Below, piece by piece: positions 7,524 to 47,659 of a stretch of DNA of 64,000 nucleotides. The notes below the pieces were generated by a model. That model searched no databases, was not told where the DNA came from, and was given only the letters and a program-made list of their open reading frames with translations. A program made the translations under genes and the position numbers. Origin of the DNA: an uncultured Pseudomonadales bacterium (GTDB taxonomy: Bacteria; Pseudomonadota; Gammaproteobacteria; Pseudomonadales; Azotimanducaceae); assembly GCA_938017975.1 (NCBI GenBank), contig CALIKQ010000005.1, positions 29,429 through 93,428 on the forward strand. Direction: 5' to 3'. Each line of letters starts with the position of its first letter. The first letter of the stretch is position 1.

Positions 7524-7710
7524 CCAGCAAGTCGAACTTCGTTGGACGAAAGCTATGGCTTGAGCTTAGGTGCGAGATGCGGTTTGTGATCGCTTGCCTA
7601 TTGAGTGGGTGCCAAGCTTGGAAGACCGTCTTCCGTTGGTGGTTGAAAGTTTGCTGACTGGACCAAAGGCTGCATGCTTCAAAATATCATGCTTTTGTGA
7701 ACCTTGATGG

Positions 7711-8376
7711 CTAGGCTGTTGGTTCGCTTAAGGTCAGGTAGGGTTCGAATAGATCAAGATTGAGAAGGAAGCGCTCTTCGAAGCCAAGATCCGCGCTGTC
7801 GAAAGAGACCGTGTAGAGGAATTGCTGTGGACATTCAATCGCATGTGCCGAGGCATCCGGATAAATCCATGTGCCGTGACAGGCTGTGATCAAACCTGGT
7901 TTACCTCTGGCATAGCTAGGTAACCGAGTATGCCCTTTGGGGCTCAATTCAGACGAACGAACTTGGTCGTTAAGCGCGTACAACGGTGCCTTTGGCGCCG
8001 AAGCAGTGCATGGAATACCGCCATCATTTGGAGCAGCAGCTTGTGGTCGTGCGGCAATTAGGTCCCCGGGGCGCTCTCCTAAAATGCGTGCCCTGGCGGT
8101 AATAGTCTCAGTTGACAAAATTCCCGCTTCTACCAGAAGCGTTTCAAGACCGCCCAGCCAACGGCCGTAGTAGCCGTGTTTTAGGTAGGCTTCAGGATCA
8201 ATTCTCTCTACGGCATGTCGAAATTGATCGACACTTTGATAGGCCCCTGCACGCGCTGCGGCGTTGACCAGGGTGAAGACCTTGGCCTCCCATCGCGCTT
8301 TAAAGACAGGCTCTCCCTCATTATGGTCAACCCTCCCGAAACCAGGTTGTCCTCCTAAATCGTGGATGCCATCCAT
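7711..8376 (-). CDS. nthB: Nitrile hydratase beta subunit
   Basis: It has the canonical N-terminus MDGIHDLGG followed by FKARWEAKVF. Length is 221 aa. GGAGGG lies 5 nt upstream of the ATG. Confidence 0.85.
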   Translation of the reverse strand: MDGIHDLGGQPGFGRVDHNEGEPVFKARWEAKVFTLVNAAARAGAYQSVDQFRHAVERIDPEAYLKHGYYGRWLGGLETLLVEAGILSTETITARARILGERPGDLIAARPQAAAPNDGGIPCTASAPKAPLYALNDQVRSSELSPKGHTRLPSYARGKPGLITACHGTWIYPDASAHAIECPQQFLYTVSFDSADLGFEERFLLNLDLFEPYLTLSEPTA

Positions 8377-17599: not shown

Positions 17600-18802
17600 C
17601 TAGTGCGCGGTAAAAAAAGTTTTTTGATGCGTTTCAAAGAGTGCTTTGAGGTCTTCATCCTTTGCGTTGAGTAACAGATCTACCCAATGGTGAAAGTGAT
17701 GCCCGCCGCCCTCGTTTTTACCAAATAGGACAAAATCCTTACCGCCTGACTCGAGCGCCCGTTGCTGCTTCAATCCAGTGGCATAGTCCTCTTGTTCGAC
17801 AACGTATTTGAGGAATTCAAACTGGGTCTTTGCTTCAGCTGCTCGTGCTTCATCGGGCTCGTTTTCCATGAGATAGTGCTGAATGGTGATCGAGGAACCA
17901 GGCGTTTCGCCGGGAAACAATTGCGAGAGCATGATGCTTCTGCCGCCGCCGTCAAAGCTCGCGATAGAGATGTGCGGAAAAATCGTCCAGACACCTGCTG
18001 TCAGTGCATCATCGGGCCAGTCCTCGACGGGACGATTTTTGAATTCCGCGAGCCTTGGATCAGGGCCTGCCACGCGCTGATGAGGTCCCCAGTTGTAATA
18101 GTTTGCTCGATTGGGGTAATCGGGGCCAAAGGTGTCCTTGTGCAAAATCGGAAGATGGTAGAGATCCATGTAGCCGTCGTACGCGATTTTCCAATTTGGT
18201 CCTTCCACCGCTTGGCTCGCAAAATAATGCCAGTTTTCAAAACCAAACTGTGCCAGTAGCGCATCATATCCTGACAGGAAGGTCTCGATGGGTAAGCTGC
18301 TGTCTCGATTTAAAGTCACCCAGATCAGTCCTGCGCGCTCTAGACACGGCAATGGGGTGAGGTTGTAACAGCTTTTATCTAAGTCACCGAAGTCCTTGTT
18401 GGCGTATATCGCGGTTAAGTCACCCTCAAGACTGTAGGTCCAAGCATGGTAAGGGCAGGTAAAACGGTGCGTGTTACCTCGTCCTACTGGCATGATTTGG
18501 GCGCCTCGATGGCTGCACATGTTGAAGAATGCTTGAATAGTGCCATCGCTCGATCGACTGATCAGCACCGGGGTGCCCGCAGCGTCGAGTGCTTTATAAT
18601 CTCCTGGATTCGGAAGCTCTGCGGTTGTTGCCAGTAGTAAGGGGACCCGTTTAAAGATTTTATCCATCTCTTGACCCCAACGGTCAGGGTCGAAATAGTG
18701 CGACGCAGGGACCTTATGAAAATTATCCGTCTGCTGAATGGTTCCCGCCTCGGCATGCTCAAGGTTGCTCTTCGCGATGGTCACGAGTTGTTCCTTTGAC
18801 AT
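17600..18802 (-). CDS. Rieske [2Fe-2S] non-heme iron oxygenase, alpha (catalytic) subunit
   Basis: The Rieske motif is C-S-H-R-G...C-P-Y-H-A-W. The mononuclear iron motif is D..YH....H (YMDLYHLPILH). The start at 18802 has GGAG 6 nt upstream. Confidence 0.8.
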   Translation of the reverse strand: MSKEQLVTIAKSNLEHAEAGTIQQTDNFHKVPASHYFDPDRWGQEMDKIFKRVPLLLATTAELPNPGDYKALDAAGTPVLISRSSDGTIQAFFNMCSHRGAQIMPVGRGNTHRFTCPYHAWTYSLEGDLTAIYANKDFGDLDKSCYNLTPLPCLERAGLIWVTLNRDSSLPIETFLSGYDALLAQFGFENWHYFASQAVEGPNWKIAYDGYMDLYHLPILHKDTFGPDYPNRANYYNWGPHQRVAGPDPRLAEFKNRPVEDWPDDALTAGVWTIFPHISIASFDGGGRSIMLSQLFPGETPGSSITIQHYLMENEPDEARAAEAKTQFEFLKYVVEQEDYATGLKQQRALESGGKDFVLFGKNEGGGHHFHHWVDLLLNAKDEDLKALFETHQKTFFTAH

Positions 18803-18917
18803 AGCGAACTCCATAGGTTGAAAAAGTTTAAAAGTCTGTTGTGACTTGACCTTCTCCTCATTAAACCGGCAAGCTTGACGGTTTTCAAGCATTCAAAATT
18901 AAGCAGGTGGAACGAAT

Positions 18918-19673
18918 ATGATCGAAGAACTGTTCAGTCTTGAGGGTGAGACCGCGGTAGTCACGGGCGCTGGTCGAGGTATCGGTGAGGGCATTGCGAA
19001 AGTGCTTGCCAGTGCCGGGGCTCGGGTTGTTTGCGCTGCTAGGCGTGCTGATGAAATAAAACGTGTCGCAGAAGACATTAATGCAGCTGGTGGTCGTGCA
19101 GCTGCTTGTGTCACCGATGTAACGGATGCACAAGCGGTTCAGGATCTTGCAGACTTTGCAGTCTCTGAGTTTGGTGGTCTTCATATGTGGGTCAATAACG
19201 CGGGAGGTTCGAGTGTTCAGCGAGCGCTTCATAAGCTCGACCGGGAGGAGTGGGATCGCACTTTGCTTCTAAATTTAACCGCGGTTTGGGAGTGTACCCG
19301 AATAGCCGCTGCTACGATGGAAACCGGACGTATTTTAAATATTTCCTCCCTCGCGGCGGAGGATGTGATTCCTGGCAGCGGGCATTACTCGGCCGCTAAG
19401 GCCGGTGTGAATATGTTGACCAAAACGTTTGCGCAGGAGCTTGGTCCAAGAATTCGGGTGAACTGTATTATGCCAGGTGCTGTACCCACTGAAATTATGA
19501 TGAAGGCGCTGCGGCTGGAGGAGGATGATTTGCCAGACTTGGAACAAATGCTGAAGCTGCCTGCAGGCCGGTTGGGAACGCCTACTGATTTGGGTGCGGC
19601 TGCCTTATATCTACTGTCTCCTGGCGCAGCTTGGGTGACGGGTCAAAATATTCGAGTCTCAGGGGGACCTTAA
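18918..19673 (+). CDS. Short-chain dehydrogenase/reductase (SDR)
   Basis: It has the TGAGRGIG cofactor motif, NNAG, and the YSAAK catalytic Y-x3-K. Confidence 0.8.
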   Translation: MIEELFSLEGETAVVTGAGRGIGEGIAKVLASAGARVVCAARRADEIKRVAEDINAAGGRAAACVTDVTDAQAVQDLADFAVSEFGGLHMWVNNAGGSSVQRALHKLDREEWDRTLLLNLTAVWECTRIAAATMETGRILNISSLAAEDVIPGSGHYSAAKAGVNMLTKTFAQELGPRIRVNCIMPGAVPTEIMMKALRLEEDDLPDLEQMLKLPAGRLGTPTDLGAAALYLLSPGAAWVTGQNIRVSGGP

Positions 19674-20668
19674 TGAAAACCACGAAAGTAGTCTTAACGA
19701 GCCGGCCTGAAGGGTCAGTTCAAGAGTCGGATATGAGTTTAATCGATGAGGAACTTGCACCACTCGAGCCAGGAGAGGTTCTGCTAGAAATCGAACATCT
19801 TTCAGTTGACGCCTTTATTCGAACGACCTTCGATGAGGGCGCCTTTCACGGGACCGCAGGAATTGGTCAGCCGATTATGGCACTTGGAACAGCAAGGGTG
19901 CTCTCCAGCAAGTTCGAAGGGCTCAACCAAGGGGATGCCGTATTTGGACCGATGGGGGCTCAAACCCACGCGAAGTTGCCAGGCGCGATGCTCCAGAAAC
20001 TCGAAGAAGAAGCCCTGCCGGCTAGGAGCTACCTGGGTGTTCTGGGCTTAGCGACTGGAATGACGGCATACGCGGGAATGACCAGAGTCGCACAAGTTTT
20101 GGAAGGAGAGACAGTGGTAGTCTCGGCTGCAGCCGGGGCAGTGGGCTCGTGTGCCTGTCAGGTTGCCAAGAATCTTGGTGCTCGAGTGATTGGAATCGCA
20201 GGCGGCGCGAGTAAGGTTGACTATCTACTCAATGAAATTGGTTGCGATGCCGCAGTAGACTACAAAGCGCCTGATCTCGAGGGGCAACTCCTCGCCGCGG
20301 CGCCTGACGGTATTGATGTGTTTTTTGATAATGTTGGCGGAGAGATTTTGGATTCGGTATTGCTGCAAATTAATGAGCGTGCCCGGGTCGTGATCTGTGG
20401 TGCTGTCTCCCAGTACGAGCGGACGGGTTCAGTTTATGGTCCAACGAATTACCTCAAAATTCCTGAGCGTAATGCCAGTATGCTTGGGTTTACGGTCATG
20501 CGATTTCAAGATGAATACGCTGAGATCCAAGAGTCGATTACAGAATGGGTACTGGCAGGGAAGTTTAAACTACCCGAGCAGATTGAATCAGGAATCGATC
20601 AGTTCCCCCGCGCGCTGACACTGCTGTTTTCGGGCGGGCATATGGGCAAGCTCATGGTCGCGCCCTAG
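19673..20668 (+). CDS. NADP-dependent oxidoreductase, zinc-independent MDR (alkenal/enone reductase, PTGR/YncB-like)
   Basis: The SDR stop and this start form a TAATG overlap, with AGGGGGA upstream. The nucleotide-binding block is AAAGAVGSCACQVAKNLGARVIGIAGG. Confidence 0.7.
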   Translation: MKTTKVVLTSRPEGSVQESDMSLIDEELAPLEPGEVLLEIEHLSVDAFIRTTFDEGAFHGTAGIGQPIMALGTARVLSSKFEGLNQGDAVFGPMGAQTHAKLPGAMLQKLEEEALPARSYLGVLGLATGMTAYAGMTRVAQVLEGETVVVSAAAGAVGSCACQVAKNLGARVIGIAGGASKVDYLLNEIGCDAAVDYKAPDLEGQLLAAAPDGIDVFFDNVGGEILDSVLLQINERARVVICGAVSQYERTGSVYGPTNYLKIPERNASMLGFTVMRFQDEYAEIQESITEWVLAGKFKLPEQIESGIDQFPRALTLLFSGGHMGKLMVAP

Positions 20669-20784: not shown

Positions 20785-21765
20785 TTAATCGAGCGCGAGG
20801 TCGATCAAAACCTTGCATTGGTGGCTCGGCGATTTGAGCGCCTCAAAGGCCTCTGGCACTGCGTTCAGAGAGATAACATCAGTGACCATCGCGCTGGCAT
20901 CGATGCGACCCTGCAGCATCATTGCGATCGTAAATTCAAAGTCTTCTTTGTCGTAACCTACCGCCCATTGAATGGTGAGTTCCTTACCAAAAGCCACGAG
21001 GGGTGTGATGGTGTCGGGGTGATCGCAAACACCAATGCCCATAATCAATCCACGTTTGGGAGCCCGTAAAATACAAGCTTGCATCAGACCGGGTGCACCT
21101 ACACATTCAAACTGGACTTCGGGTGCGCCCCCTGTGAGGGCAATGAATTCGGCGTCAACATCTCCACTCGGGTCAACGAAATCGCTAAAACCAAAGTCTC
21201 GAGCCATCTTGAGCCTGGCCTCTGCCATTTCACTGATAACGATCCGGGCAGCGCCAAAAAATCGCGCCCAGATTGCACAAGTCAACCCGATGGGGCCAGC
21301 ACCGATGATGAGCACCGTTTTTCCAGCAATGTTGCCGGCCATTTTGACGGAATGAAGCCCGACTGCGAGGGGCTCGACCAATGCGCCTTCCCGATTGGAA
21401 AGCGATTCTGGTAGTTTAACGACCAAGTCATAACCAACCTTGACGTATTCACTGTAAGCGCCGGAAATTTTGCCGAGACCGATGGTCTTGTCGTCAATAA
21501 AAGGTAACGAGGTTACGCGATCACCCAGAGTAAATTCGCCATCCTGAAGTGCCGTCCCGATTTGCACAATTTCCCCGGTAAATTCATGCCCAAAAATTGT
21601 CTCAGGGGGTGCCATAAAGGGCCCTTCCTTTGAAGCATGAATATCGGTGCCACAGATCCCGCAGTGGCTGACTTTGACCAGCATTTCTCTCTCAGAGATG
21701 ATCGGCTCGGGGACCGTCTCGATTGTCAGTTGTTCCCCGGGACGGTGAAATACAGCAGCTCTCAT
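20785..21765 (-). CDS. Zinc-dependent alcohol dehydrogenase (MDR family)
   Basis: It has CGICGTDIH, GHEFTGEIV and the GAGPIGL Rossmann motif. Confidence 0.8.
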   Translation of the reverse strand: MRAAVFHRPGEQLTIETVPEPIISEREMLVKVSHCGICGTDIHASKEGPFMAPPETIFGHEFTGEIVQIGTALQDGEFTLGDRVTSLPFIDDKTIGLGKISGAYSEYVKVGYDLVVKLPESLSNREGALVEPLAVGLHSVKMAGNIAGKTVLIIGAGPIGLTCAIWARFFGAARIVISEMAEARLKMARDFGFSDFVDPSGDVDAEFIALTGGAPEVQFECVGAPGLMQACILRAPKRGLIMGIGVCDHPDTITPLVAFGKELTIQWAVGYDKEDFEFTIAMMLQGRIDASAMVTDVISLNAVPEAFEALKSPSHQCKVLIDLALD

Positions 21766-22074
21766 AATGAATCCTCCAAAATTATCAGTACCAACCCCAA
21801 GAAGCTCAACTGAGACTGGGACAAGAATGGACCCAGCATAGAGTTCTTCGCCATGAATGTTAAGGGCTTATGCAGCGGCTGTACCAGGTCATCAAAGATC
21901 AACATTGCGCTTAAGATGATCAACGAGGACGTCTCTGTGTGAACGCGCTAGCCTTGAGTCTTAAAATAACATCACCGCTCAGCCCTGAGTCAATCGCCCA
22001 TCCAAAGTCGTTCCTTGTGCCTGGTCGATTGTGACCCCAGGCCTAGGATTCTACTCGGTGTCTTTGCCCTACGG

Positions 22075-23322
22075 TCACGCCAATCGGTCAAACTCAATGT
22101 TGAGATCGGTTGGTGGATGGAGCAGCAAACTGGGCATAAACTCTAGGGTCTCTTGCCCCTTTGGGACTCTAAACCCGGTCATGCGCTGCAGGATAACCCG
22201 AAATCCAACAATCAATTCTTGTCGTGCCAATGGTGCGCCAAGGCAATGGTGAACGCCCTGGCCAAACGCGATTTGGGTTTTGAGATTGTCTCTTGTTACG
22301 TCAAAGGCATCGGGCTCGGGAAACTGCCCTGCATCTCGGTTCGCTGATCCAAACTTAATCATCATTGTCGCACCAGCTGGAATTTTCACGCCGCTTACCT
22401 CGGTGTCTTCCCTGCAAATGCGCCACATCTGTGCTGTAGGTGTCGAAAGACGCAACATTTCTTCCACCATATTTGGAATTAAGCGAGGGTCCTTTTGAAC
22501 CAAATCGACTTGCTCCGGATGGGTTGCTAAAAGATGCATGCCTTCTGCAAAGGTGCTGGTGGTGGTCTCGTTGCCAGCGACCAGCAGCTGAGAAATTACC
22601 GATAGGCACTCCTCAGTATTCATTGGATGTTCTCCATCTGCCGATGAGTTGACGATATCTGATAATACATCGTCTGTTGGGTTCTTTTTCCTGCTCTCGA
22701 TTTTCTCTGCGAAATAATGTTGAAAGTCGACGACCAGTTCCGCTGCACGGAGCGCACCTTCACGGGTTTGGCCTGCTGAAAATGAGTAGACGTTGGCGTC
22801 GGACCATTCCTTAAATAAGGCCATATCTGTCAAGGGTACGCCGAGAATGTAAGCGATCATTCGAACTGGCATTGGGACGGCAAAGGCTTCCATCCAGTTG
22901 CACTGCCCACGGTCGATGATTTCATCAATGAGTTCGTGCGCTAAAGTCTCAATATAGGGCTGAAGCTTGGCGACGCTGCTGGCAGAAAATGGCTTTTGAC
23001 ACAGCGAGCGATAACGTCGTTGCCGGGGTGGGTCAGCCGTAAGCATGGTGTCCACCCTGCGGTATCCTTTCTTTAAGATCGCTTCCATTTCTGGATCTCG
23101 GGGAGGAGTTGATCCGGCTTGAATCATTGAAAATTCGTTTGAAAAACGTTTTTCATTCTTTGCTACGTCGACTACGTTGGCGTAGTCGGATACAAAATAG
23201 ACGCCAGTCACCGGACAATGATAGACCGGCGCCTCTTCTCGCAGTCTCTGATTAAACGCGTAGGGACACGCTAAAATTTCTGGGTCAAGCGGGTTAACCT
23301 CGTGGAGGGATTGTTCAGTCAT
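22075..23322 (-). CDS. Cytochrome P450
   Basis: The heme-thiolate loop is FGQGVHHCLGAPLARQE. The I-helix is AGNETT and the ExxR motif is EEMLR. Length is 415 aa. Confidence 0.9.
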   Translation of the reverse strand: MTEQSLHEVNPLDPEILACPYAFNQRLREEAPVYHCPVTGVYFVSDYANVVDVAKNEKRFSNEFSMIQAGSTPPRDPEMEAILKKGYRRVDTMLTADPPRQRRYRSLCQKPFSASSVAKLQPYIETLAHELIDEIIDRGQCNWMEAFAVPMPVRMIAYILGVPLTDMALFKEWSDANVYSFSAGQTREGALRAAELVVDFQHYFAEKIESRKKNPTDDVLSDIVNSSADGEHPMNTEECLSVISQLLVAGNETTTSTFAEGMHLLATHPEQVDLVQKDPRLIPNMVEEMLRLSTPTAQMWRICREDTEVSGVKIPAGATMMIKFGSANRDAGQFPEPDAFDVTRDNLKTQIAFGQGVHHCLGAPLARQELIVGFRVILQRMTGFRVPKGQETLEFMPSLLLHPPTDLNIEFDRLA

Positions 23323-23329
23323 AGTGTTC

Positions 23330-24478
23330 TCAATTAAATGTTGTTTTTAACCAATTGCCGAGCTTCATGAACGGAATCATGTAGGGCAGTATTTTTAAAG
23401 TTTTTTCGACGTTCCAATCGATCAAGGCAGCATCTAGCCTTGAATACATGGCATGAAATAAAGGTGCCGCGCGGTCAGAGGTTTGCTCGATTTCGTCCAT
23501 GCTCATAGAAAACATCAGCAGGGTCACGACCAGGTTGATTTCATATTCTTGAAGCATTTTTTGGTAACTGTAATTTTCTACACCGTTAGCGATAAGACGC
23601 TCATGGTAAAGCTTCAGTAAGTCAGTTTCATGTTGGCGCCTGAGGTCGATATCGATGCTCTGGGTCAGCCAGCGTGCGATATCAGTCATTGGCTGGCCAA
23701 TACCCGCTGTTTGCCAGTCTATGATTGTGGGCTCGTCAGAGGGACTTTCCGGAGAAAAGAAAATATTGTCGGACCTGAGGTCTCCATGAACCAGGGTGTA
23801 AGGTTCAGGTTGTGGTGGCTCCATGGCAAATAGAGGTGGCAGCCTAGGTTGCAGTCGTTTCATGTTTGGATAGGCATCAAAGCGGCCGGTCCGTTCGGCA
23901 TCTTGAATGCTTGCCTCGAGTTGGATAAGGCTCTCTTTTATTGGGGTGACATGTGTAATCGGCGCGGTCCAAGCCATTTGTTTGAGATCGGGGCTATTCC
24001 ACCATTTGCCATGAAGGTCAGCGAAGGCGAGCATGACTTGCTCGGATTGCTCGAGCGTGTTCCCAACCACCTGATCCGTTGGAACCGCCGGCGCGAGGTC
24101 CTCCATCACCATGACAAAGTGCTGATTTTGAGCATCAAAATGCTGACAATAGATGGTTGGCGTCTTGACGCCTGCGGTCTTGGCGCAATCCTCGTAGAAG
24201 CCCAACTCACGACCATAGTAGTTCATTCTTCCAGCGAGGATCCGCGTGGCCTCAAAGTGCGATGAAAATTTAACCACAACGGTCTTCGGGTGATTTGCGT
24301 TAGAGGCGCTTGTCAATGAAACGCGTTCTAGATCACCCATGAAACCAGACCCTACACCGATGGTGGTGTTCTCGAAATGTTCAACCGCGATGTTCGGGAA
24401 GCTGGGTTTCAAGGCTTTGGTGAGCCAATCGGCGGTGAGTGCCGCGGGTGATGTTGGAAAATCAGGCTTGCTGGACAT
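23330..24478 (-). CDS. Phosphotransferase-family kinase (APH/ecdysteroid-kinase-like fold)
   Basis: The catalytic loop is HGDLRSDNIFF, followed by IIDWQ. The start at 24478 overlaps the upstream gene by 17 nt; ATG 24517 is an alternative start. Confidence 0.7.
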   Translation of the reverse strand: MSSKPDFPTSPAALTADWLTKALKPSFPNIAVEHFENTTIGVGSGFMGDLERVSLTSASNANHPKTVVVKFSSHFEATRILAGRMNYYGRELGFYEDCAKTAGVKTPTIYCQHFDAQNQHFVMVMEDLAPAVPTDQVVGNTLEQSEQVMLAFADLHGKWWNSPDLKQMAWTAPITHVTPIKESLIQLEASIQDAERTGRFDAYPNMKRLQPRLPPLFAMEPPQPEPYTLVHGDLRSDNIFFSPESPSDEPTIIDWQTAGIGQPMTDIARWLTQSIDIDLRRQHETDLLKLYHERLIANGVENYSYQKMLQEYEINLVVTLLMFSMSMDEIEQTSDRAAPLFHAMYSRLDAALIDWNVEKTLKILPYMIPFMKLGNWLKTTFN

Positions 24479-25115
24479 TAGCGGGTTGTCCCTGCGGCGC
24501 TTGAAGCTCTTCGCCAAGGTGTTGGAAATCGTTCAAGGTCAGCACTTTGGGTTCTGGATCAAGTAGCACCTCCGTGATAGCCCCATTGTGCATCAGGTAC
24601 TGATAGCCGAATTTAGGTTGTGTTTTCATAAGCCCAGCCATGCCGTGTGCGATCGCGCTGCCGTGGCTGACGCAGATGATGTTTTCATTGCGATAGCTGC
24701 TGAGAGCCTTTGTCAGTGCTGCTTTGACTCGGGCGTAAACGGTATTGGGGCTCTCGCCGCCGTGACCTTCAAAATTATCATCTTTAATCGATTTTACTGC
24801 GTAGCCATTGTCCAGCATTTGCTGGTAAGTGATTCCCTCCCAGTCGCCCAGATCGCATTCGATGAGGCCGGGTTCTATCTCGATTGGAAGGTTTAAGCCT
24901 GCATTAATCAAGCGCGCAGTCTCCAAGGCGCGCGAAAGCGGACTGACCAAAATACGATGATAGGGTGTTGCCCAAGTGGTTAAGCGTTCCCCTGTCGCTT
25001 GGGCTTGGGAGATGCCTTTTGCGTTCAGAGGAGACTCAGTGACGCCGTATGCTAGCTGTTGCTGATTGGCCTGGGTTTCTCCGTGGCGGATGAACATCAT
25101 ATGTCGGTTCATCAA
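24462..25115 (-). CDS. Histidine phosphatase family protein (phosphoglycerate mutase-like)
   Basis: The N-terminal RHGE motif appears as FIRHGETQAN. A downstream SHG also fits the family. It has a 4-nt ATGA overlap with the upstream ligase. Confidence 0.75.
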   Translation of the reverse strand: MMNRHMMFIRHGETQANQQQLAYGVTESPLNAKGISQAQATGERLTTWATPYHRILVSPLSRALETARLINAGLNLPIEIEPGLIECDLGDWEGITYQQMLDNGYAVKSIKDDNFEGHGGESPNTVYARVKAALTKALSSYRNENIICVSHGSAIAHGMAGLMKTQPKFGYQYLMHNGAITEVLLDPEPKVLTLNDFQHLGEELQAPQGQPANVQQA

Positions 25116-26644
25116 TCTGAGTGACCCTCCCAGAATGGCGCTCGTAGCTTTCTTTTGTTAATTTTGCCCATCGTATTGCGGCCCAAGTCGTCGACAAAGT
25201 CTACAGTTCTAGGGCATTTGTAGTGGGAAAGCTTGGATCGACAAAATGTGATGATTTCTGCGGCTTCGGTGTTCTGGCTAACATCTTTGAGAATAACCAT
25301 CGCCTTGAGCTCCTCACCCATTTCTGGATGAGGGATTCCAATACAAGCGACATCCAGAATATCTGGATGTTCGATGAGTACCTGCTCGGCTTCAGCGGGA
25401 TAAATATTGACACCCCCCGAGACGATCATGTCGCTGAAACGGTCGGTGATATAGACGTAACCGTCTTCGTCCATGTAGGCGATTTCTCCCAAAGTAAAGA
25501 CGCCGGGGGCAATGTGCGCCGCCGCGGATTTTTCTGGGTCATTATGATAGACGACGCCCCGTCCGGTCGCGTCCTCAAAATAGAGCTGCCCCTCGGTGTT
25601 GGCGGGCAAGGGTTGACCTGTTTCGTCCAAAATCTTCGCGGTAAAAGGAGGGATGCTTCGACCCACTGAACCAGGGTGCTCCAGCCATTCCTCTGATGTG
25701 ATCATGCAAGTCGTTCCAACTTCGCTGGCGCCGTAGGCATCCGTAAAAATCGGTCCCCACCATTCGATCATGCCGCGCTTGATGTCAACGGGGCACTTCG
25801 AGCCTGTGTGGCTGACCCGGATCATGCTGGACACGTCGTATTGTGCCTTGATGTCGTCATCGAGCGCGAGCAGTCGGACAAAATGTGTGGGTACCATAAT
25901 TGTGGATGTGGTTTTAAATTCTGAAATGGCTTTCAGTGTATTTTCAGCATCGAATTTTGTCAGAATGACCGAAGGCGCGCCTGCCGCGAGTAACCGTGCA
26001 CCGCTTAAAGGTCCCGTATGGTACATGGGTCCGACCACAAGGTGGGGCCCAAGGGTTGCCAGTGGATTGAGTTTTAAGTTTTCTAGATGAGCCTCAACCG
26101 TGTCACCACCTGCAAACATTGTCGGCGGCAAGTGAGTGCCTTTCGGGCGACCGGTGGTCCCGGACGTGTAGAGTAAATTGGGGCGAGGTTCGATGCTGGT
26201 GTCTGGCTCTTCTCCCGAGCTAGTTGCCAGCCAGGCGTCCCAGTCCAATAAATGGGTTTCTTCGCAGCGCCATCCAATGACGGTGTTGATCTCCGCTAGT
26301 TTTGCAGCAGCCAGACCTCGCTCTGCGGTTTCGGGCCCCACAAAAAGCATCTTGCTGTTTGAGTCGCTGAGTATGTAGGCGACTTCTTCCGCCGTGAGGT
26401 GAAAGTTCACCGGTACAACGGATGCGCCTCCAATCAGTCCACCCAGATTGGCGATCGCAGTCTCTACGCCATTCTCTGCAAAAACGGCAATTCTCCTTTC
26501 GGTGCCAAGGTCAGCAGCCCGGATCGCGTTTGCAGCTCGATTCAGACAGTCATCGACCTCGAGCCAAGTCAGCGCCTGCCTCGGATCTCTGAGTGCAATT
26601 TCTGAGGGCCGCTCCGCGGCAATTGTTTTGGCAAATGTTGTCAT
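25112..26644 (-). CDS. Acyl-CoA synthetase (AMP-forming, ANL superfamily)
   Basis: The AMP-binding motif is LLYTSGTTGRPKG. The C-terminal region contains GKINKRKL. Length is 510 aa. Confidence 0.85.
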   Translation of the reverse strand: MTTFAKTIAAERPSEIALRDPRQALTWLEVDDCLNRAANAIRAADLGTERRIAVFAENGVETAIANLGGLIGGASVVPVNFHLTAEEVAYILSDSNSKMLFVGPETAERGLAAAKLAEINTVIGWRCEETHLLDWDAWLATSSGEEPDTSIEPRPNLLYTSGTTGRPKGTHLPPTMFAGGDTVEAHLENLKLNPLATLGPHLVVGPMYHTGPLSGARLLAAGAPSVILTKFDAENTLKAISEFKTTSTIMVPTHFVRLLALDDDIKAQYDVSSMIRVSHTGSKCPVDIKRGMIEWWGPIFTDAYGASEVGTTCMITSEEWLEHPGSVGRSIPPFTAKILDETGQPLPANTEGQLYFEDATGRGVVYHNDPEKSAAAHIAPGVFTLGEIAYMDEDGYVYITDRFSDMIVSGGVNIYPAEAEQVLIEHPDILDVACIGIPHPEMGEELKAMVILKDVSQNTEAAEIITFCRSKLSHYKCPRTVDFVDDLGRNTMGKINKRKLRAPFWEGHSD

Positions 26645-26646
26645 GA

Positions 26647-28809
26647 TTAAGCTACCGCCTCTGCTACGGCTCGAAGGTTAACAGGTATTGCACTCATTCT
26701 TGGCATGCCTGTGATTGGATTGAAAGTTCGGTCATCGTCAACCAGACGGTTGGTGCTTGAGCCTTGGGTTCTGACTTCACCGCCGTTGTCAGGTAGATCC
26801 CCCCAAGCATGGGCCATGGAGATGACGCCTGGTTTGATGTCCTCGGCTGCCTCCACAATGCCTAGCAGCGTACCAGCAGCGGACGCAATCTCCACGAGAT
26901 CGCCTGATTTAAGATTCAGTGTTGTTAGATCATCGGGGTGCATATAGGCGGGATTGGTGGTTCCCTTTTTTCGCAAGCCTTCAAGCTGCTGCCCCGACGA
27001 GTTAAAGACGTGTTTCAGTCTGCGGCTGATCAATAGGTGCGAATAGGTGGCACCATCGTCCATGTTCGTTGTCTGTTGCCAATAGGTTTCGCCAGCGACT
27101 TCTTGGAGCTGCTCAGAAATATCTGCTGGCAACAATTGGAAGCGGTGCTTATCTTTATGCGGGTGGCGCTGGGGCGGCGTCACGGTTACTTGAACATCGC
27201 TGAAGATATGGCCTTGTCCCTTCTCAGCAATCTCGCTAAGTGGCACGCTCGCGTTCGGCGTCAGTAGCGACAACACATCAAATTTGCTGGGTCTTACCTC
27301 GGTGTTCAGACGTCCGCCAGGTAGCTCGAGCGCCAGGCCAGACCGATGGGAAAGCTCCCAGTAAATCTCCCATTCCTCGCGGCTTTGAGGGTTTCTAGGC
27401 AATACAGCTTTCGTGTAATGACAATAAGGTTGATCGTACCAAGTATCGGTTAGCATTGTGACGTCGTCACGCTCGAGGCTTAAAGTCGGCGCGACAATAT
27501 AGTCGGCGAGTTTGGCTGTTGCCGATTGATACAGATCAACACACACCAATAAATCGAGTGCTTTCATCGCGCGAATCGTTTTGTCCTGATCGGGAAATGC
27601 GACTACTGGATTACCGCCAAGGCAGATCAGTGCCTTAATCTGTCCCTCGCCCTCGAGCAAGATTTCGTCATTCAGTGCGGCCGTTGGCATCTCTCCGATA
27701 ATTTCTCCGAGGCCCCTAACCCGAGACCATGGACCCTTGCCGTAGGCTGGATTGGCGGCAATCACTTCAGCCTCGCGCGCTCTTTGAGGTTGAAGCACGC
27801 CGGGATTGGGTACCCGCTCGCCCACCTTATTGATTCGCCCGCACAGGGTATTCAGGCAACAAATCAGATGTTCTGTGAGGATTCCTCGGGGCGACATGTT
27901 GGGTCCCGTGCCGGTTACCGCAACGCCACGCTTCGCCTCACCAAATATTTGGGCGGCTGCAATAAGATCGTCCTCCGGAATTCCGCATCGAGTGGCCGCA
28001 TAGTCCGTTGTAAAGGGCTCTACCAAGGCGCGGAGGGCATCAAGGTCCTCAACGTGCTCTGCACAAAATTCAGCGTCGTAAAGGTTTTCTGTGAGCACGT
28101 ATCGAATCAGTGCCGATAACAGGGTTGGATCTTCTGCAGGGTTGACCTGCAAATGTAGGGTTGCTCGGTTGGCAACCTCGGTTCTGCGTGGGTCGGCCAC
28201 AATGACTTTCATTCCGCGCTTCATCTCATCTCGAATTCTTGCGTAGGGACTAAATGGCGGGGGGCCGCCAAAGGGCGTGTATTGAGAGACGACCGGGTTG
28301 TTCCCGATCATCATGCAAACATCCGCTCCTGTAAATGCGTGCGTGCCTCCGGCCCAAGTCCCAAATTGTGATTGCGCGATCCTCCGGTGAGGTTGATCAA
28401 TTGTGACCGATGTATAGTAGGACGGAGAACCAACGCTCTTGTGCCAGGCTTTGGCAATATGCAGCGCAGCTGAATTTTGATAGCCATAGGAGCCGACGTA
28501 GGTGGCCACACTTCGCGGGCCGTGCTCGGCAATGATGCGCTGTATTTTGTCTGAGATTTCGTCCATGGCTTGGTCGACATCGACAGGTTCGAAATCTCCC
28601 GTCGTGCCGCGCTTTAGGGTCTCTCGCAATCGCTTGGGTGTCGAAAATTGTTCAGGTAGCTGTCGGCCCTTGATACAGGTGTAGCCGCCGTAAATGGGGT
28701 CGGAGGTGTCGCCCCGAACGGCGACTGGCTTGCCATCCTCAACGTCGACTTCAATTGCGCAATAGGCATGACAAAAGCGGCAAAATGTTTTGTGTGTCGT
28801 TTGCGTCAT
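26647..28809 (-). CDS. Molybdopterin (bis-MGD) oxidoreductase, MopB superfamily, cytoplasmic single-subunit type
   Basis: The N-terminal Fe-S motif is C-R-F-C-H-A-Y-C...C-I-K-G. No twin-arginine signal is visible. Length is about 720 aa. The start at 28809 has GGAG 7 nt upstream. Confidence 0.75.
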   Translation of the reverse strand: MTQTTHKTFCRFCHAYCAIEVDVEDGKPVAVRGDTSDPIYGGYTCIKGRQLPEQFSTPKRLRETLKRGTTGDFEPVDVDQAMDEISDKIQRIIAEHGPRSVATYVGSYGYQNSAALHIAKAWHKSVGSPSYYTSVTIDQPHRRIAQSQFGTWAGGTHAFTGADVCMMIGNNPVVSQYTPFGGPPPFSPYARIRDEMKRGMKVIVADPRRTEVANRATLHLQVNPAEDPTLLSALIRYVLTENLYDAEFCAEHVEDLDALRALVEPFTTDYAATRCGIPEDDLIAAAQIFGEAKRGVAVTGTGPNMSPRGILTEHLICCLNTLCGRINKVGERVPNPGVLQPQRAREAEVIAANPAYGKGPWSRVRGLGEIIGEMPTAALNDEILLEGEGQIKALICLGGNPVVAFPDQDKTIRAMKALDLLVCVDLYQSATAKLADYIVAPTLSLERDDVTMLTDTWYDQPYCHYTKAVLPRNPQSREEWEIYWELSHRSGLALELPGGRLNTEVRPSKFDVLSLLTPNASVPLSEIAEKGQGHIFSDVQVTVTPPQRHPHKDKHRFQLLPADISEQLQEVAGETYWQQTTNMDDGATYSHLLISRRLKHVFNSSGQQLEGLRKKGTTNPAYMHPDDLTTLNLKSGDLVEIASAAGTLLGIVEAAEDIKPGVISMAHAWGDLPDNGGEVRTQGSSTNRLVDDDRTFNPITGMPRMSAIPVNLRAVAEAVA

Positions 28810-29034
28810 GAAGGTGCTCCGAGCTTTCAATGTATGCGATGTCCTGATCATGCCCGAATAATGGCATCAGCGCATTGTGGAATCTGTTGTACAGCAGTAA
28901 GAGTATCGAAAAACATAAAAAACAGTCAATGATGACTTTTTTGCCTGAGATGCAGGTCTCTAAAGCGCGCGTTTTTCTGAGACTGGCTGGTACTGGGAAG
29001 CCTAAGAGGTTTCTAAAACTGTTGGATTTTGGGC

Positions 29035-29064
29035 AAAAAAAAGCAGGCGTTTGCCTGCTTTTTT
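29035..29064 (-). terminator. Bidirectional rho-independent terminator downstream of the TonB-dependent receptor
   Basis: The sequence is A8-AGCAGGC-GTTT-GCCTGCT-T5, a perfect 7-bp stem flanked by an A-run and a T-run. It lies 22 nt beyond the receptor stop codon. Confidence 0.85.
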
Positions 29065-29085: not shown

Positions 29086-31452
29086 CTACATCTCCCAAAC
29101 AAGCTCAACGGCGTAGGTTCGCGGCGCTCCCCAACCCTGAAACCCAGTCGTCGGGCCGCCGAGGAACAACGCATGTTCCTTGAATTCCTCATCGGTCAGA
29201 TTCTTACCGAATGCGGTGATAGCAACTTGGTTGCCATTGGACATCTCCCAGCTGTAAGCCACTCGTGCATCCAGTTGAGAGTAACCACCTTCATAGAGAC
29301 GCTGATCAGCACCGCCGCCGGTATTCACCAGTAAGAAGTCTCCTACGGTCTTGTAACCGATGTTAGCGCCAAAGAAACCAGCGCCCATTTCTTGATCAAA
29401 GGCCAGACTGACCGAGAGGCTATCCTCGGGTTGACGTGAATCTGAGCCACCACCAAGGTTGCGCAGCGTACCAGCTGGGTCCAGTACGCCGACAGTGGCG
29501 GTTACGCAGCCGTCAACGACATCGCAAGGCAATGTAAATGCGCTGTTGGTGACATCGATGGTTCCGTAATTGAAGATTAGGCGAAGATTGTCGGTGAAGA
29601 ACCATTGCCCCTCTAGTTCCCAGCCCTTGGATTCGCTTTCGCCGCCATTATTGATCAAAGTCGTCGTCCCCGGGATGGACCCTGGGGGCAATGTGATGAT
29701 CGATGAGAACTGAGCAGAATCGCGATTCAGGACATAGTAGGCAAGATTTAATCTCAGCTTAGAATCGAGTAGATCGTTCTTGATACCAATTTCTATTTGA
29801 TCGGCTGATTCGGGGTCGTAGCCTGCGGTGGCAGCACCCGATGCGTTTCGGATACTAAAGCCCCCACTTCGAAAACCTTCGGAGTAGTTGAGATAAGCCA
29901 AAGAGAGATCACTGATGCGGTAACTTGCCGAGGCCGTTACGATCGTATCAGACCATGATTTTCCAGGAGTCACGTAAGCCGATCCTGGTCTCATGGGGTA
30001 GGCTCTAAAATCGTGCTCGTTGTATCCGACCGCGGTGCGATCATCATAGGTTCCCGTTGAGTAATCAAAGTAGCTGTTGAAAGCTTGTTTTGATTCATCG
30101 ATGGCACGCGCTCCCAGGGTCATCTCCAAATCATCGGTTGGCGCAAAAGTGATTGACGCAAACCAAGCATTTGAGTCTACGGTCTCTCCTGCAAGCTGCG
30201 TACTGCGTGCATTCGGGAATTGACAAAAACTTTCTAGACCGGGCGTTGCGTTTGATCTAAAGCCTGCCGCTGCGCAGGGAACATCAGCGCCAAATATTGC
30301 AAAATTGGGCAACTGCAATATGTTGTTGGTATCTTGTCTGAATTCGAGCTCAGAGCCAAAGTCGTAGTAGCCGACCATCGCAGAGAGCTGATCATTGATC
30401 TCGATATCGAGCCGCAATTCGTGGGTCCTGATCTCGTACATTTGGTCTCGAAGCGTGTGCAACTGTGCAAAAGGAATCGCTGCACCATTGATATCACCAC
30501 CATCGAAATCTTGGTTGACGATGTCATGTCCATCGGACTTTCCGCCCGCATAATGAAGGCTCAACGAGTCGGAAATATCCCAATCCAATCTGAGGCTCAT
30601 CTGGTCGACGTCGTAGCGCGTCGGTTCGACCTTGTCTGCACGGTTAACAAACCGGTTGTCGCCGTCAAAGCGCGGATCTTGCGGTAGGGTCTGCGAACGA
30701 TCTCCGATGTGATCGTAGGTCAAAACCATTTCGAGAGTATCGCTGGGTGCCCATGCGATCGCTGCCGTCTGAGACGAAAAATCAACGTCTCCGGCAGTTC
30801 TGTTGAGATTAACATTGTCATAAAAACCGTCCCGCTCGCGATCAATGGCGCCAAATTTGAGCGCGAGGGTATCGTCAATAAGCGGAATGTTGACCCGAGC
30901 CTTCATGGTTTGAGAGTTGTAGTTCCCACTCTCAATACTGAACTTTGCGCCGAATTCATTGAACTGGGGCTTTACTCGGTTTACCACGATATTGCCACCG
31001 ATGGTGTTCTTTCCAAAGAGCACGCCTTGAGGACCTCGGTTAACTTCAATGGATTCGACGTCAAAGACGTCAATCAACTGGCCGGTGCTTGAACCCATCT
31101 GAATGCCATCAACGATGACGCCGACCTGGGGACTTTGGGTCTTTTCGATATCAGCATAACCGACACCACGGATATACAGAGCACTGGCTCCCGGGCCTGC
31201 GGTGTTCATCCCGATATAGACATTGGGTACCAGACCATCAAAGTCGCGTAAGGTTGTCGGCTTAATTTGATCGATTGCTTCTTGCCCGAACGCAGTTACA
31301 GAAAGCGGAACATCTTGAACAGATTCGTCTTTGCGGCGGGAAGTGACGACCACTTCTTCCATAGCCCGATTTGACTCCTCCGCTAGGACGACGGGCGCCG
31401 TAATCGGCGCGCTGATGACAGCGATGATCGCTGCGATTCGACTCATGTTCAT
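29086..31452 (-). CDS. TonB-dependent receptor
   Basis: It has a signal peptide and a plug-domain start EEVVVTSRRKDESVQDVPLSVTAF. The 788-aa product has a beta-barrel-like C-terminal region. Confidence 0.85.
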   Translation of the reverse strand: MNMSRIAAIIAVISAPITAPVVLAEESNRAMEEVVVTSRRKDESVQDVPLSVTAFGQEAIDQIKPTTLRDFDGLVPNVYIGMNTAGPGASALYIRGVGYADIEKTQSPQVGVIVDGIQMGSSTGQLIDVFDVESIEVNRGPQGVLFGKNTIGGNIVVNRVKPQFNEFGAKFSIESGNYNSQTMKARVNIPLIDDTLALKFGAIDRERDGFYDNVNLNRTAGDVDFSSQTAAIAWAPSDTLEMVLTYDHIGDRSQTLPQDPRFDGDNRFVNRADKVEPTRYDVDQMSLRLDWDISDSLSLHYAGGKSDGHDIVNQDFDGGDINGAAIPFAQLHTLRDQMYEIRTHELRLDIEINDQLSAMVGYYDFGSELEFRQDTNNILQLPNFAIFGADVPCAAAGFRSNATPGLESFCQFPNARSTQLAGETVDSNAWFASITFAPTDDLEMTLGARAIDESKQAFNSYFDYSTGTYDDRTAVGYNEHDFRAYPMRPGSAYVTPGKSWSDTIVTASASYRISDLSLAYLNYSEGFRSGGFSIRNASGAATAGYDPESADQIEIGIKNDLLDSKLRLNLAYYVLNRDSAQFSSIITLPPGSIPGTTTLINNGGESESKGWELEGQWFFTDNLRLIFNYGTIDVTNSAFTLPCDVVDGCVTATVGVLDPAGTLRNLGGGSDSRQPEDSLSVSLAFDQEMGAGFFGANIGYKTVGDFLLVNTGGGADQRLYEGGYSQLDARVAYSWEMSNGNQVAITAFGKNLTDEEFKEHALFLGGPTTGFQGWGAPRTYAVELVWEM

Positions 31453-31593: not shown

Positions 31594-31956
31594 TTAGCTC
31601 ATCTGCGATACGAACGTGTTCAGATCAAAGTAGTCTCGCCAAGCGACGATTTTTTCATCTTTGATTTCAAAAGTTCCCATGACCGGGAGTGAGACCTTGT
31701 TGCCCGATTTCATGTCAAAATTATCGATGCGCTCGGTCAGCACAATATTGCCAGAGGCCGCAATGTTGAGGGTAATCCAATCTACGGCATTGGCCTGCAT
31801 ACCGCGAATAAACGATTCTGCCGCTGCTCTTCCCTCGAGTTTTTCCATCGGGATATTGTGATAAACCACTGCCTCATCGAGTAAGCCGATGACCTTGTCC
31901 CAGTCCATTTGATTCCAAGCTTCTATGAACGTTTCAACAGTTTCTGTAGGGGTCAT
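31594..31956 (-). CDS. Limonene-1,2-epoxide hydrolase-like / SnoaL-like NTF2-fold protein
   Basis: Length is 120 aa. Blocks VETFIEAWNQMDWDKV, VVYHNIPME, IVLTERIDNF, LPVMGTFEI.D.KI.AWRDYFDL fit the LEH family as I recall it. Confidence 0.6.
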   Translation of the reverse strand: MTPTETVETFIEAWNQMDWDKVIGLLDEAVVYHNIPMEKLEGRAAAESFIRGMQANAVDWITLNIAASGNIVLTERIDNFDMKSGNKVSLPVMGTFEIKDEKIVAWRDYFDLNTFVSQMS

Positions 31957-39261: not shown

Positions 39262-40248
39262 GTGGCCAAAAAAATAACCAACAAAACATTGACCGATTTG
39301 CACCTGAAGATGGTGCGTATCAGACGCTTTGAGGAAGAAGCAGGAAAGCTGATGGAGGACGGGAAAATTCCAGGGGCTTTACACCTTTATGTCGGTCAAG
39401 AGGCTGTTGCCGTTGGCGTTATGGCGCACCTTTCCAACGCAGATCAGATCACCAGTACGCATCGTGGCCATGGCCATGTGATTGCTAAAGGCGGCGAGTT
39501 TTCACCGATGTTTGCCGAGCTTTATGGAAAAGCCACGGGCTATTGCAAAGGCAAAGGGGGAAGCATGCATATTTCGAATATGGCGCTCGGGATCTTGGGC
39601 GCAAACGGAATTGTTGGTGGCGGTCCGCCGATCGCTATGGGCGCTGCATTCTCTAATAAGTTCCGAAAAACAAAGCAGGTTTCTGTCACATTCTTCGGCG
39701 ATGGCGCGTCTAATGAAGGTAGTTTCCATGAAGCTGCAAATATGGCGGCGCTGTACCAACTGCCCTGTGTATTCGTCTGTGAAAATAATGGTTTTGGGGA
39801 GTATACGGCCCAGACGAACCACCAGGCGGTAACAGACGTTGCTGATCGTGCGGCGGGATACGGAATGCCTGGCGTGGTTGTCGACGGCATGGATGTGATG
39901 GCCGTTTATGAAGCTGCCGAGGCTGCAGTTGAGCGGGCACGGTCGGGTCAAGGTCCGACGCTCTTAGAGTGTAAGACCTATCGATATTATGATCATGTCG
40001 GTGTTCGGGGAATGGGGCTGACCTATCGGACTGATGAAGAAGTCGAGGCTTGGAAGGCTCGAGATGCCATCGAAAGTTTCGAAGCTTTATTGATCAAGCA
40101 AGGCGTATCAACAAAAAAGAAAATTGAAAATGTCTACGCACGGGTCAACGAAGAAATTCTAGAGGGCGTTGCATTTGCAGAGTCCTCACCGTTCCCGACC
40201 GAGGAAGACTTGTTGCAAGATGTTTACTTTGTAGGAGCTGCGTCATGA
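39262..40248 (+). CDS. Thiamine-diphosphate-dependent 2-oxoacid/acetoin dehydrogenase E1 alpha subunit
   Basis: It has a GTG start. The TPP-binding region is GDGASNEGSFHEAANMAA..LP..FVCENNG, and HRGHGH is upstream. Confidence 0.85.
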   Translation: MAKKITNKTLTDLHLKMVRIRRFEEEAGKLMEDGKIPGALHLYVGQEAVAVGVMAHLSNADQITSTHRGHGHVIAKGGEFSPMFAELYGKATGYCKGKGGSMHISNMALGILGANGIVGGGPPIAMGAAFSNKFRKTKQVSVTFFGDGASNEGSFHEAANMAALYQLPCVFVCENNGFGEYTAQTNHQAVTDVADRAAGYGMPGVVVDGMDVMAVYEAAEAAVERARSGQGPTLLECKTYRYYDHVGVRGMGLTYRTDEEVEAWKARDAIESFEALLIKQGVSTKKKIENVYARVNEEILEGVAFAESSPFPTEEDLLQDVYFVGAAS

Positions 40249-41246: not shown

Positions 41247-41249
41247 GGA

Positions 41250-42239: not shown

Positions 42240-42249
42240 GGGAGTCTGA

Positions 42250-47636: not shown

Positions 47637-47659
47637 GGTGTCTCCATTGCCGATGGCTG

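Follow-up and report, generated by a model that had tools for sequence, protein, structure and literature searches.

A five-gene operon of an uncultured Azotimanducaceae bacterium is a lineage-specific mosaic that includes a conserved histidine phosphatase-kinase pair

ACAD10 contributes to ether-lipid metabolism through a phosphatase domain and a kinase domain, each active at a different step, and the family of this kinase is defined by HYDxK and DWE motifs (PMC13596139). In insects, an EcKL kinase and EPP, a member of the histidine phosphatase superfamily, phosphorylate and dephosphorylate ecdysteroids, and a physical interaction between EcKL and EPP has been suggested (PMC10859841). [quoted passage not shown] Here, we analyze a stretch of 64,000 nucleotides (nt) from contig CALIKQ010000005.1, which we refer to as the window. 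It comes from Candidatus Azotimanducaceae (HTCC2089/OM182, Pseudomonadales), an uncultured marine clade, and it carries a kinase gene and a histidine phosphatase gene within a minus-strand run of five adjoining genes. Contigs with an identical kinase are present in Tara Oceans and other metagenome assemblies, and the listed titles and abstract openings of the literature on Azotimanducaceae, HTCC2089, and OM182 contained nothing on this cluster.

The original prediction described the five genes as a translationally coupled operon that might constitute one pathway. We delimited the genes by open reading frame (ORF) listing and direct reading of the sequence, and we assigned families by Pfam gathering scores and NCBIfam cut-offs. 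In the order of transcription, the genes are as follows:

26647 to 28809, minus strand: MopB molybdo-/tungsto-enzyme, 720 amino acids (aa), with an ATG at 28809 and GGAG 9 nt upstream
25112 to 26644, minus strand: acyl-CoA ligase, class I adenylate-forming, 510 aa, with AMP-binding and AMP-binding_C domains
24462 to 25112 (25115 with a TTG start), minus strand: histidine phosphatase, branch 1, PGM-like, 216 aa, His_Phos_1 at 157 bits
23330 to 24478, minus strand: small-molecule kinase of the EcKL/DUF1679/APH fold, 382 aa, EcKL at 76 bits
22075 to 23322, minus strand: cytochrome P450, class I bacterial, 415 aa, Pfam p450

Each of the five families scored far over its Pfam gathering cut-off. None of the five proteins reached an NCBIfam equivalog cut-off, and we therefore treat them as family members without a named function.

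Three of the four predicted junctions are exactly as described. The MopB TAA is followed by TC and then by the ligase ATG, a gap of 2 nt; the phosphatase and kinase genes overlap by 17 nt, with the same starts in independent gene calls on identical contigs; and 7 nt separate the kinase TGA from the P450 ATG. The fourth junction, which had been given as a 4-nt ATGA overlap between ligase and phosphatase, reads TTGATG instead, such that the ligase TGA overlaps the phosphatase ATG at 25112 by 1 nt or an alternative TTG start by 4 nt. The ATG appears the more likely start, as GGAGGG (a Shine-Dalgarno sequence) lies 12 nt upstream of it and gene callers pick the 216-aa product. On identical contigs from marine metagenomes and metagenome-assembled genomes (MAGs), gene callers use the same boundaries for the genes. 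The tight junctions and the gene order are kept in related species that have all five genes, which indicates an operon rather than a chance juxtaposition. Overall, the ORFs, the junctions, and their retention across related species establish that the translationally coupled five-gene unit is genuine, and it is present in at least ten species.

We then asked how far the set holds together across species. We scanned one genome per GTDB species with a seed alignment of kinase homologs, which yielded 79 loci, and mapped the window proteins onto these loci by tblastn; a kinase ortholog (at least 40% identity) was present in 54. Counts of adjacent genes were taken over the 36 species-level loci with flank sufficient for all five genes:

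Phosphatase adjacent to the kinase: 34 of 36 loci
MopB at the kinase locus: 17 of 36 loci
P450 adjacent to the kinase: 13 of 36 loci
Ligase adjacent to the kinase: 11 of 36 loci
All five genes together: 10 of 36 loci

All ten loci with the full set have a kinase at least 57% identical to that of the window, and the full set is confined to a clade close to the window (hereafter, the near clade). Four arrangements recurred: MopB-ligase-phosphatase-kinase-P450, found in the near clade and with MopB lost in two species; LEH-phosphatase-kinase-P450; MopB-phosphatase-kinase; and LEH-phosphatase-kinase. The idea that the five genes are co-conserved as one pathway does not survive this survey. Instead of a conserved pathway, the set is a mosaic specific to one lineage, with MopB, ligase, and P450 as accessory genes, gained and lost independently.

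The phosphatase-kinase pair, split in the window and fused elsewhere, is the only invariant part of these loci and constitutes a conserved, unexplained core. In the 18 loci that lie outside the island described below (Myxococcota, "Deltaproteobacteria," and other Gammaproteobacteria), the pair is all that is shared; its neighbors are unrelated, and in 10 of the 18 it forms a single ORF of about 600 aa. Among the best 120 kinase homolog clusters, 21 have a His_Phos_1 domain within the same polypeptide. In an exhaustive profile search, the kinase orthogroup reduced at 50% identity to a fused cluster (601 aa) and an unfused cluster (392 aa), below which scores fall to paralogs of about 365 aa (1,492 cluster representatives at E up to 1e-30). 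The names of the paralog clusters are generic only ("thiamine kinase-like," "aminoglycoside/choline kinase family," "hypothetical").

The catalytic residues of both enzymes are invariant whether the pair is split or fused. In the kinase, the Gly-rich loop, K70, H231-G-D-L-R-S-D-N238, and I253-D-W-Q256 are the same in the window sequence and 18 homologs (19 sequences), and in the phosphatase, R9, H10, R61, E85, and H150 are the same in split and fused homologs. The phosphatase has an RHG motif whose His is the nucleophile, together with another His, two Arg, and an acidic residue as proton donor, which place it by sequence in the branch-1 histidine phosphatase superfamily, as a predicted phosphatase or mutase. 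Among solved proteins it is closest to broad phosphatases (a PGM-family protein, CobC, PhoE, PspA, and GpgP), and FBPase-2 is among its weak PDB matches. The kinase belongs to EcKL (PF02958; 76.3 bits against a cut-off of 22), with lower scores for DUF1679 (55 bits) and APH (49 bits) and with the matched stretches mostly in the C-lobe. Its AlphaFold2 model (pLDDT 83) has an APH/choline-kinase fold.

Some loci bring further genes close to the pair. In two Myxococcota/"Deltaproteobacteria" MAGs, an RPE65-family (carotenoid/stilbene cleavage) oxygenase gene lies upstream of it (L024:6255-7757 and L060:4887-6464), and a paralogous second kinase (27 to 31% identity) follows immediately downstream. 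Large proteins with a spermidine synthase domain are encoded near the pair in two unrelated lineages (L089:4699-7110, additionally fused to an MFS domain, and L088:15275-18124), and PhoD phosphatases are encoded near it in L086 and L088.

The reading we favor, to which we assign a probability of roughly 45%, is that a lineage-specific catabolic operon was accreted around an older, self-contained module of histidine phosphatase and EcKL-type kinase; three accessory enzymes joining this module inside an island of TonB receptor and oxidoreductase genes would produce the mosaic operon seen here. Under this reading, the TonB receptor would import a lipophilic compound that carries a hydroxyl and is most likely similar to an isoprenoid or steroid. 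The P450 would install or oxidize a hydroxyl, with MopB as a possible oxygen-independent alternative or complement, and a zinc-dependent alcohol dehydrogenase (Zn-ADH) would carry the alcohol towards the acid. In the near clade, the ligase would form the CoA thioester, which sister species may pass to a ChsE4-like acyl-CoA dehydrogenase (ACAD). The target of the kinase would be a hydroxyl on the substrate, or on an intermediate other than a CoA ester, and the phosphatase would act at another step of the same route or strip misplaced phosphate. These roles would resemble those of the HAD phosphatase and kinase halves of ACAD10 and of the insect ecdysteroid kinase/phosphatase pair, and the kinase step would not be a leaving-group step tied to the ligase.

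The accessory enzymes belong to broad families. MopB has the Molybdop_Fe4S4, Molybdopterin, and Molydop_binding domains, all above their Pfam cut-offs, which place it in the MopB superfamily. Its N-terminal 4Fe-4S motif (CxxCxxxC...C) is conserved and it has no twin-arginine leader, consistent with a cytoplasmic, single-subunit enzyme of an uncharacterized clade of that superfamily. Formate dehydrogenases, Nap, and acetylene hydratase are its PDB relatives, all about equally far (approximately 1e-30 to 1e-35). We rejected a formate dehydrogenase or nitrate reductase identity: NCBIfam scores are far under cut-off (Fdh-alpha 184 bits against 666, NasC 153 against 1100), and an invariant motif, YTSVTIDQP (residues 132 to 140), occupies the position of SeCys140 of FdhH and offers no Cys or SeCys ligand. 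The metal ligand is probably Ser or Asp. [quoted passage not shown] MopB is a single gene flanked by the candidate promoter and the ligase, it lacks a twin-arginine leader, and it scored 70 bits against a cut-off of 985 with the type II model TIGR03479, so we also rejected a type II steroid C25/C26 dehydrogenase identity. The clade has more than 4,600 homologs at E up to 1e-20, with names that are all generic. Two relatives (62% and 53% identity) have SDR, OYE, PNPOx, SnoaL, ACAD, or Rieske genes as neighbors, and kinase, ligase, and P450 genes are absent there, indicating that MopB is an independent module.

The ligase is a generic FadD-type enzyme. It scored 181 bits with AMP-binding and 62 bits with AMP-binding_C, and it has the core motifs TSGTTGRPKG and YGASE and the C-terminal GKINK that mark class I adenylate-forming enzymes. 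The best NCBIfam models were FadD4-like and PRK12406, both under cut-off, and the best PDB match was FadD5 of Mycobacterium tuberculosis. The P450 (Pfam, 106 bits) has both the heme motif FGQGVHHCLG and the I-helix motif AGNETT of its family. Its nearest solved structure is 6GMF (E = 7.4e-65, over the full length), which is CYP109Q5, a promiscuous terpene/steroid monooxygenase; matches to the steroid C26-monooxygenases CYP125 and CYP142 ranged from 1e-51 to 1e-56.

The original prediction also noted that an ACAD partner is absent. This holds for the window, where the operon contains no ACAD and the nearest ACADs lie about 22 kb off in a separate cluster, but not for a sister clade of three species (L008, L009, and L012), in which an ACAD follows right after the P450. 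In these loci, the ACAD and a second P450 copy are inserted between the P450 and the Zn-ADH (L008:12829-15584). The inserted ACAD is closest to ChsE4/FadE26, a sterol side-chain ACAD (4x28, E = 5.8e-49), with generic ACADs at about 1e-30. An ACAD11-type identity was rejected, as ACAD11 is not among the best 60 PDB matches listed for it.

In the window, two adjacent ACAD genes (47660-48865 and 46509-47636, with no middle-ACAD-domain match recorded in the second) form a pair in a cluster at 45617-52931, whose other members are enoyl-CoA hydratases, a HIBADH-like gene, and an SDR. Orthologs of this pair (70% and 57% identity) occur about 3 kb downstream of a fused phosphatase-kinase gene, after a beta-lactamase-fold gene, in two other Gammaproteobacteria (L025:12908-15261 and L033:3636-5953).

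The operon lies within a larger island that runs from a ThuA-like gene through a luciferase-like monooxygenase, SDRs, an ABM-domain gene, an LEH-fold gene, and the TonB receptor to the operon, and then on to the Zn-ADH, an enone reductase, an SDR, a Rieske oxygenase, and enoyl-CoA hydratases. The members nearest to the operon are as follows:

29086 to 31452, minus strand: TonB-dependent receptor (Pfam), in the same order in most island-type loci
31594 to 31956, minus strand: LEH/SnoaL-fold protein (Pfam), in the same order in most island-type loci
20785 to 21765, minus strand: Zn-ADH (Pfam, NCBIfam)
19631 to 20668, plus strand: enone-reductase-like MDR (Pfam, NCBIfam)
18918 to 19673, plus strand: SDR (Pfam, NCBIfam)
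17600 to 18892, minus strand: Rieske oxygenase (Pfam, NCBIfam)

Orthologs of the downstream genes (Zn-ADH, MDR, SDR, and Rieske) are kept in island-type loci down to 43% kinase identity.

Several weak hints suggest that the substrate is a lipophilic, isoprenoid- or steroid-like hydroxy acid, and they point to no particular compound. The P450 is CYP109Q5-like, an LEH-fold gene is conserved in the island, an enone reductase is present there, and EcKL is the best Pfam family of the kinase. In related loci, the hints are the ChsE4-like ACAD and second P450 of the sister clade, the two Myxococcota loci in which an RPE65-family oxygenase lies upstream of the phosphatase-kinase pair, and one fused pair that has an Ldi-like fragment next to it. 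Given the P450, ACAD, and RPE65 hints in particular, the earlier suggestion of a lipid or terpenoid acid stands, as the better-supported guess.

Two features mark the 5' side of the unit:

29035 to 29064, minus strand: intrinsic terminator of the upstream TonB-dependent receptor gene, at the 5' boundary of the unit (sequence, folding, alignment)
28902 to 28929, minus strand: sigma-70-like promoter candidate of the five-gene unit (TTGACT, 16 nt, GATACT; promoter scan)

A terminator had been predicted at 29035 to 29064, and both folding and comparison bear it out. The hairpin, AAAAAAGCAGGC-AAAC-GCCTGCTTTTTTTT, has a folding energy of -18.6 kcal/mol (z = -4.6), and 200 shuffled sequences included none as stable. 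An alignment of the window with five other species shows a variable loop on a stem that is nearly invariant, the exception being a G-to-A change on the 5' side in a single species; this is the signature of a functional terminator. A consensus terminator scan did not detect the hairpin, probably because A/T runs lengthen its stem. About 110 nt downstream of it is a block of approximately 45 nt (AAAAAA-TCA-CATTGACTGTTTT...TTCG-TACTCTT) that is nearly invariant in the same six sequences, while the intergenic DNA around it has diverged. We take the TTGACT-16-GATACT element within this block as the candidate promoter of the operon. An Rfam scan of the leader and the rest of the 20-32 kb region of the window returned no riboswitch or known RNA, only a chance snoRNA match (E = 0.38).

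Related loci differ from the window just downstream of the operon. In 21 of them, a conserved protein of 179 aa without a Pfam match is encoded after the kinase (or P450) and before the Zn-ADH (for example, L089:11149-11688, in which its start overlaps the kinase stop, and L019:12406-12936). It was lost in the window's clade, and tblastn found no remnant of it in the 309-nt spacer at 21766-22074.

Other gene groups of the window are farther away. A 2-oxoacid dehydrogenase operon (39262-45005; E1 alpha, E1 beta, E2, and E3) has an NAD-kinase-family gene between E1 beta and E2, and a TetR regulator gene and an ABM-domain gene lie immediately upstream of it. At 5447-8376, the nitrile hydratase genes are split: two unrelated small genes separate a full-length beta-like gene (7711-8376) from the alpha gene (5447-6031) and a short beta-N-terminal-domain gene. 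Next come genes for allantoicase, ureidoglycolate lyase, adenosine deaminase, and a purine nucleoside permease.

Several results weigh against a catabolic operon for a lipophilic compound built around the phosphatase-kinase module. Four concern the substrate and point to polar or quaternary-amine compounds. The Zn-ADH resembles polyol, threonine, and inosose dehydrogenases (the best NCBIfam models are threonine, scyllo-inosose, idonate, and galactitol-1-phosphate dehydrogenases, all matched far below their cut-offs); ThuA-like genes are conserved in the island; genes resembling 3-keto-disaccharide hydrolase and DAHP synthase occur in some related loci; and the Rieske protein is closest to the quaternary-amine enzymes CntA (carnitine monooxygenase, its best PDB match) and Stc2. 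A KshA steroid ring hydroxylase identity for this protein was rejected, as KshA is not among the matches listed. The remaining points concern the enzymes and the transcript. No ferredoxin or reductase gene adjoins the P450, and neither the P450 nor MopB has an adjacent redox partner. EPP and Sts-1 are both missing from the 50 PDB sequences that matched the phosphatase at E up to 1e-3, and we rejected that identity for it. With a kinase and a phosphatase on one polypeptide, a futile cycle could result unless the two are regulated or have different target molecules. The 309-nt spacer between the P450 and Zn-ADH genes is conserved in neither sequence nor length, and scanning and cross-species alignment found no conserved terminator or promoter in it to mark a 3' transcript end. 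Finally, among the homologs of the kinase, the phosphatase, and the MopB clade we found none with a tested function, so the whole mechanism is one that we infer.

Other explanations fit parts of the same evidence. The phosphatase-kinase pair might work independently of its neighbors as a salvage, detoxification, or regulatory unit, for example by setting the level of one phospho-metabolite as PFK-2/FBPase-2 does or by acting on a protein, and MopB, ligase, and P450 would then carry out unrelated steps. Fused kinase/phosphatase proteins are classically regulatory, the 18 non-island loci share nothing else and have differing neighbors, PhoD phosphatases occur near the module in two unrelated loci, and MopB travels independently. 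However, in at least 30 species this one conserved island contains the pair, with the stop codon of one gene overlapping the start codon of the next, and EcKL/choline-kinase-fold enzymes are small-molecule kinases. Moreover, wherever MopB, ligase, and P450 are present, they share the strand of the pair and lie 0 to 20 nt from it, an argument that the genes are co-expressed and serve one pathway. We consider an independent module unlikely.

The original prediction likened the operon to the lva and ACAD10/11 routes, in which the ligase would make a hydroxyacyl-CoA and the kinase would phosphorylate its hydroxyl as a leaving group for elimination. The ligase does lie two genes upstream of the kinase in the window's clade, the sister clade has an ACAD after its P450, and the kinase-family profile matched only four PDB sequences, of which two are ACAD11 entries (8v3v the best, E = 4.6e-5) and the others are 3dxp, which also tops the Foldseek list, and 9dk1. 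The sequence match to ACAD11 covers only about 65 residues around the catalytic loop, however, and the kinase has HGDLR and DWQ in place of the HYDxK and DWE of the ACAD10 kinase. The best Pfam family is EcKL, not APH. Foldseek recovered a generic APH/choline-kinase fold (TM about 0.55, identity at most 16%), in which 3dxp (TM 0.52 to 0.58, 15% identity) fits no better than choline kinase alpha (TM 0.55 to 0.60), and similarity to the ACAD10/11 kinase domain does not exceed that to other APH-fold kinases. The partners do not match either: the window operon has no ACAD, and that of the sister clade is ChsE4-like.

The neighborhood survey bears on the same analogy, because a substrate-supplying ligase should accompany the kinase if the kinase uses its product. 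The ligase is missing beside the kinase in 25 of the 36 species, and what stays with the kinase throughout, often in one fused protein, is a hydrolytic phosphatase, an enzyme that would reverse a leaving-group phosphorylation. Given that the ligase is adjacent in 11 of 36 loci and the phosphatase in 34, and fused in others, the kinase cannot generally act on the CoA product of the ligase. LvaA-style phosphorylation of a hydroxyacyl-CoA is therefore unlikely as the general function, though possible in the near clade, and we regard the route as a whole as quite unlikely. In keeping with the earlier remark on the lack of a characterized pathway with this gene set, neither the kinase nor the MopB clade is given a functional name by any source.

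We give still less weight to the proposal that the phosphatase/EcKL module is an undescribed bifunctional marine enzyme that activates an isoprenoid- or steroid-like hydroxyl with ATP. This proposal has two versions. In one, the module could do in bacteria what the ecdysteroid kinase/phosphatase cycle does in insects. In the other, the phosphatase-fold half could eliminate or transfer the phosphate and the molybdoenzyme re-functionalize the product, as an aerobic-ocean analog of the Sterolibacterium cascade.

A route of ATP-dependent dehydration and re-hydroxylation of the Sterolibacterium kind is very unlikely. It would begin with a hydroxylase, after which the kinase would act, phosphate elimination would give an alkene with the phosphatase-fold protein or a neighbor as lyase, the molybdoenzyme would hydroxylate the allylic carbon, and ADH and ligase would finish the acyl-CoA. 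The gene set parallels S25DH, 25-HSK, 25-PSL, S26DH, ADH/ALDH, and CoA ligase, and P450 and MopB, which are separate in different clades, occur together in the near clade. As a "phosphotransferase" of about 40 kDa with little similarity to known kinases, 25-HSK can be likened to the window kinase by description only. Against the parallel, MopB is a single-subunit cytoplasmic enzyme rather than a type II DMSO reductase heterotrimer, the pair occurs without MopB in 19 of 36 loci, and the phosphatase retains the full hydrolase/mutase catalytic set; we know of no phosphate-eliminating activity in branch-1 histidine phosphatases.

It is just as improbable that the island degrades a polar compound (a cyclitol, sugar derivative, or quaternary-amine alcohol) with the kinase and phosphatase handling sugar-phosphate-like intermediates, which would suit the four polar hints above and a kinase fold that matches choline kinase as well as any other, since the NCBIfam matches involved are all far below cut-off and lipophilic acids are a better fit for the P450, LEH-fold protein, enone reductase, ligase, enoyl-CoA hydratases, and ChsE4-like ACAD.

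These results move the focus from a five-gene "pathway" to a compact, testable kinase-phosphatase module. A substrate for the kinase would give a function to a wider family of about 1,500 cluster representatives (E up to 1e-30) with no characterized member, and also to an orphan cytoplasmic molybdoenzyme clade of more than 4,600 homologs (E up to 1e-20), and it could shed light on the processing of hydroxylated lipophilic dissolved organic matter by oligotrophic bacteria. Should the kinase instead turn out to serve ordinary salvage or detoxification, with the phosphatase as its proofreader, the outcome would be a useful annotation and no new principle.

The closest known systems include those that place an APH-fold kinase in lipid catabolism, namely ACAD10, in which the kinase accompanies a phosphatase domain, ACAD11, and LvaA-E of Pseudomonas putida, in which an acyl-CoA ligase (LvaE) is present. 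By sequence and by fold, the solved structures closest to the window kinase are ACAD11 and 3dxp. However, the window kinase has HGDLR/DWQ in place of HYDxK/DWE, its match covers the catalytic loop only, and it has no ACAD fused or adjacent; its phosphatase is a histidine phosphatase, whereas that of ACAD10 is a HAD; and the ligase is not a conserved partner. The insect ecdysteroid 22-kinase and EPP pair the same Pfam families, EcKL and His_Phos_1. The setting in the window is bacterial and catabolic, unlike that of the insect pair, and the phosphatase is nearer to CobC, PhoE, PspA, and GpgP than to EPP/Sts-1.

The parallel with Sterolibacterium is more speculative. Both systems may combine a hydroxylase, a phosphotransferase-type kinase (compared by description), a molybdoenzyme, an ADH, and a CoA ligase for an isoprenoid side chain. 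The molybdenum enzymes of Sterolibacterium are type II members of the DMSO reductase family, whereas the window MopB is a lone cytoplasmic member of another clade, and the cascade has no phosphatase. With regard to steroid-degrading systems more broadly, CYP109Q5 is the nearest solved P450, ahead of CYP125/CYP142, and the sister-clade ACAD is nearest to ChsE4 of ChsE4-ChsE5; the identities are moderate, the Rieske protein is not KshA-like, and no 9,10-seco steroid ring-opening genes were recognized among the annotated window genes. PFK-2/FBPase-2 likewise fuses a kinase to a branch-1 histidine phosphatase on one polypeptide, but its kinase is of the P-loop type and that of the window is protein-kinase-like, the domain order is reversed, and it has a regulatory role where the window has a catabolic operon. 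The ACAD10 and insect EcKL/EPP precedents fit this architecture better than an LvaA-style mechanism does. Bifunctional kinase/phosphatase modules and TonB-linked catabolic islands are both known kinds of system, and the operon described here is a variation on both.

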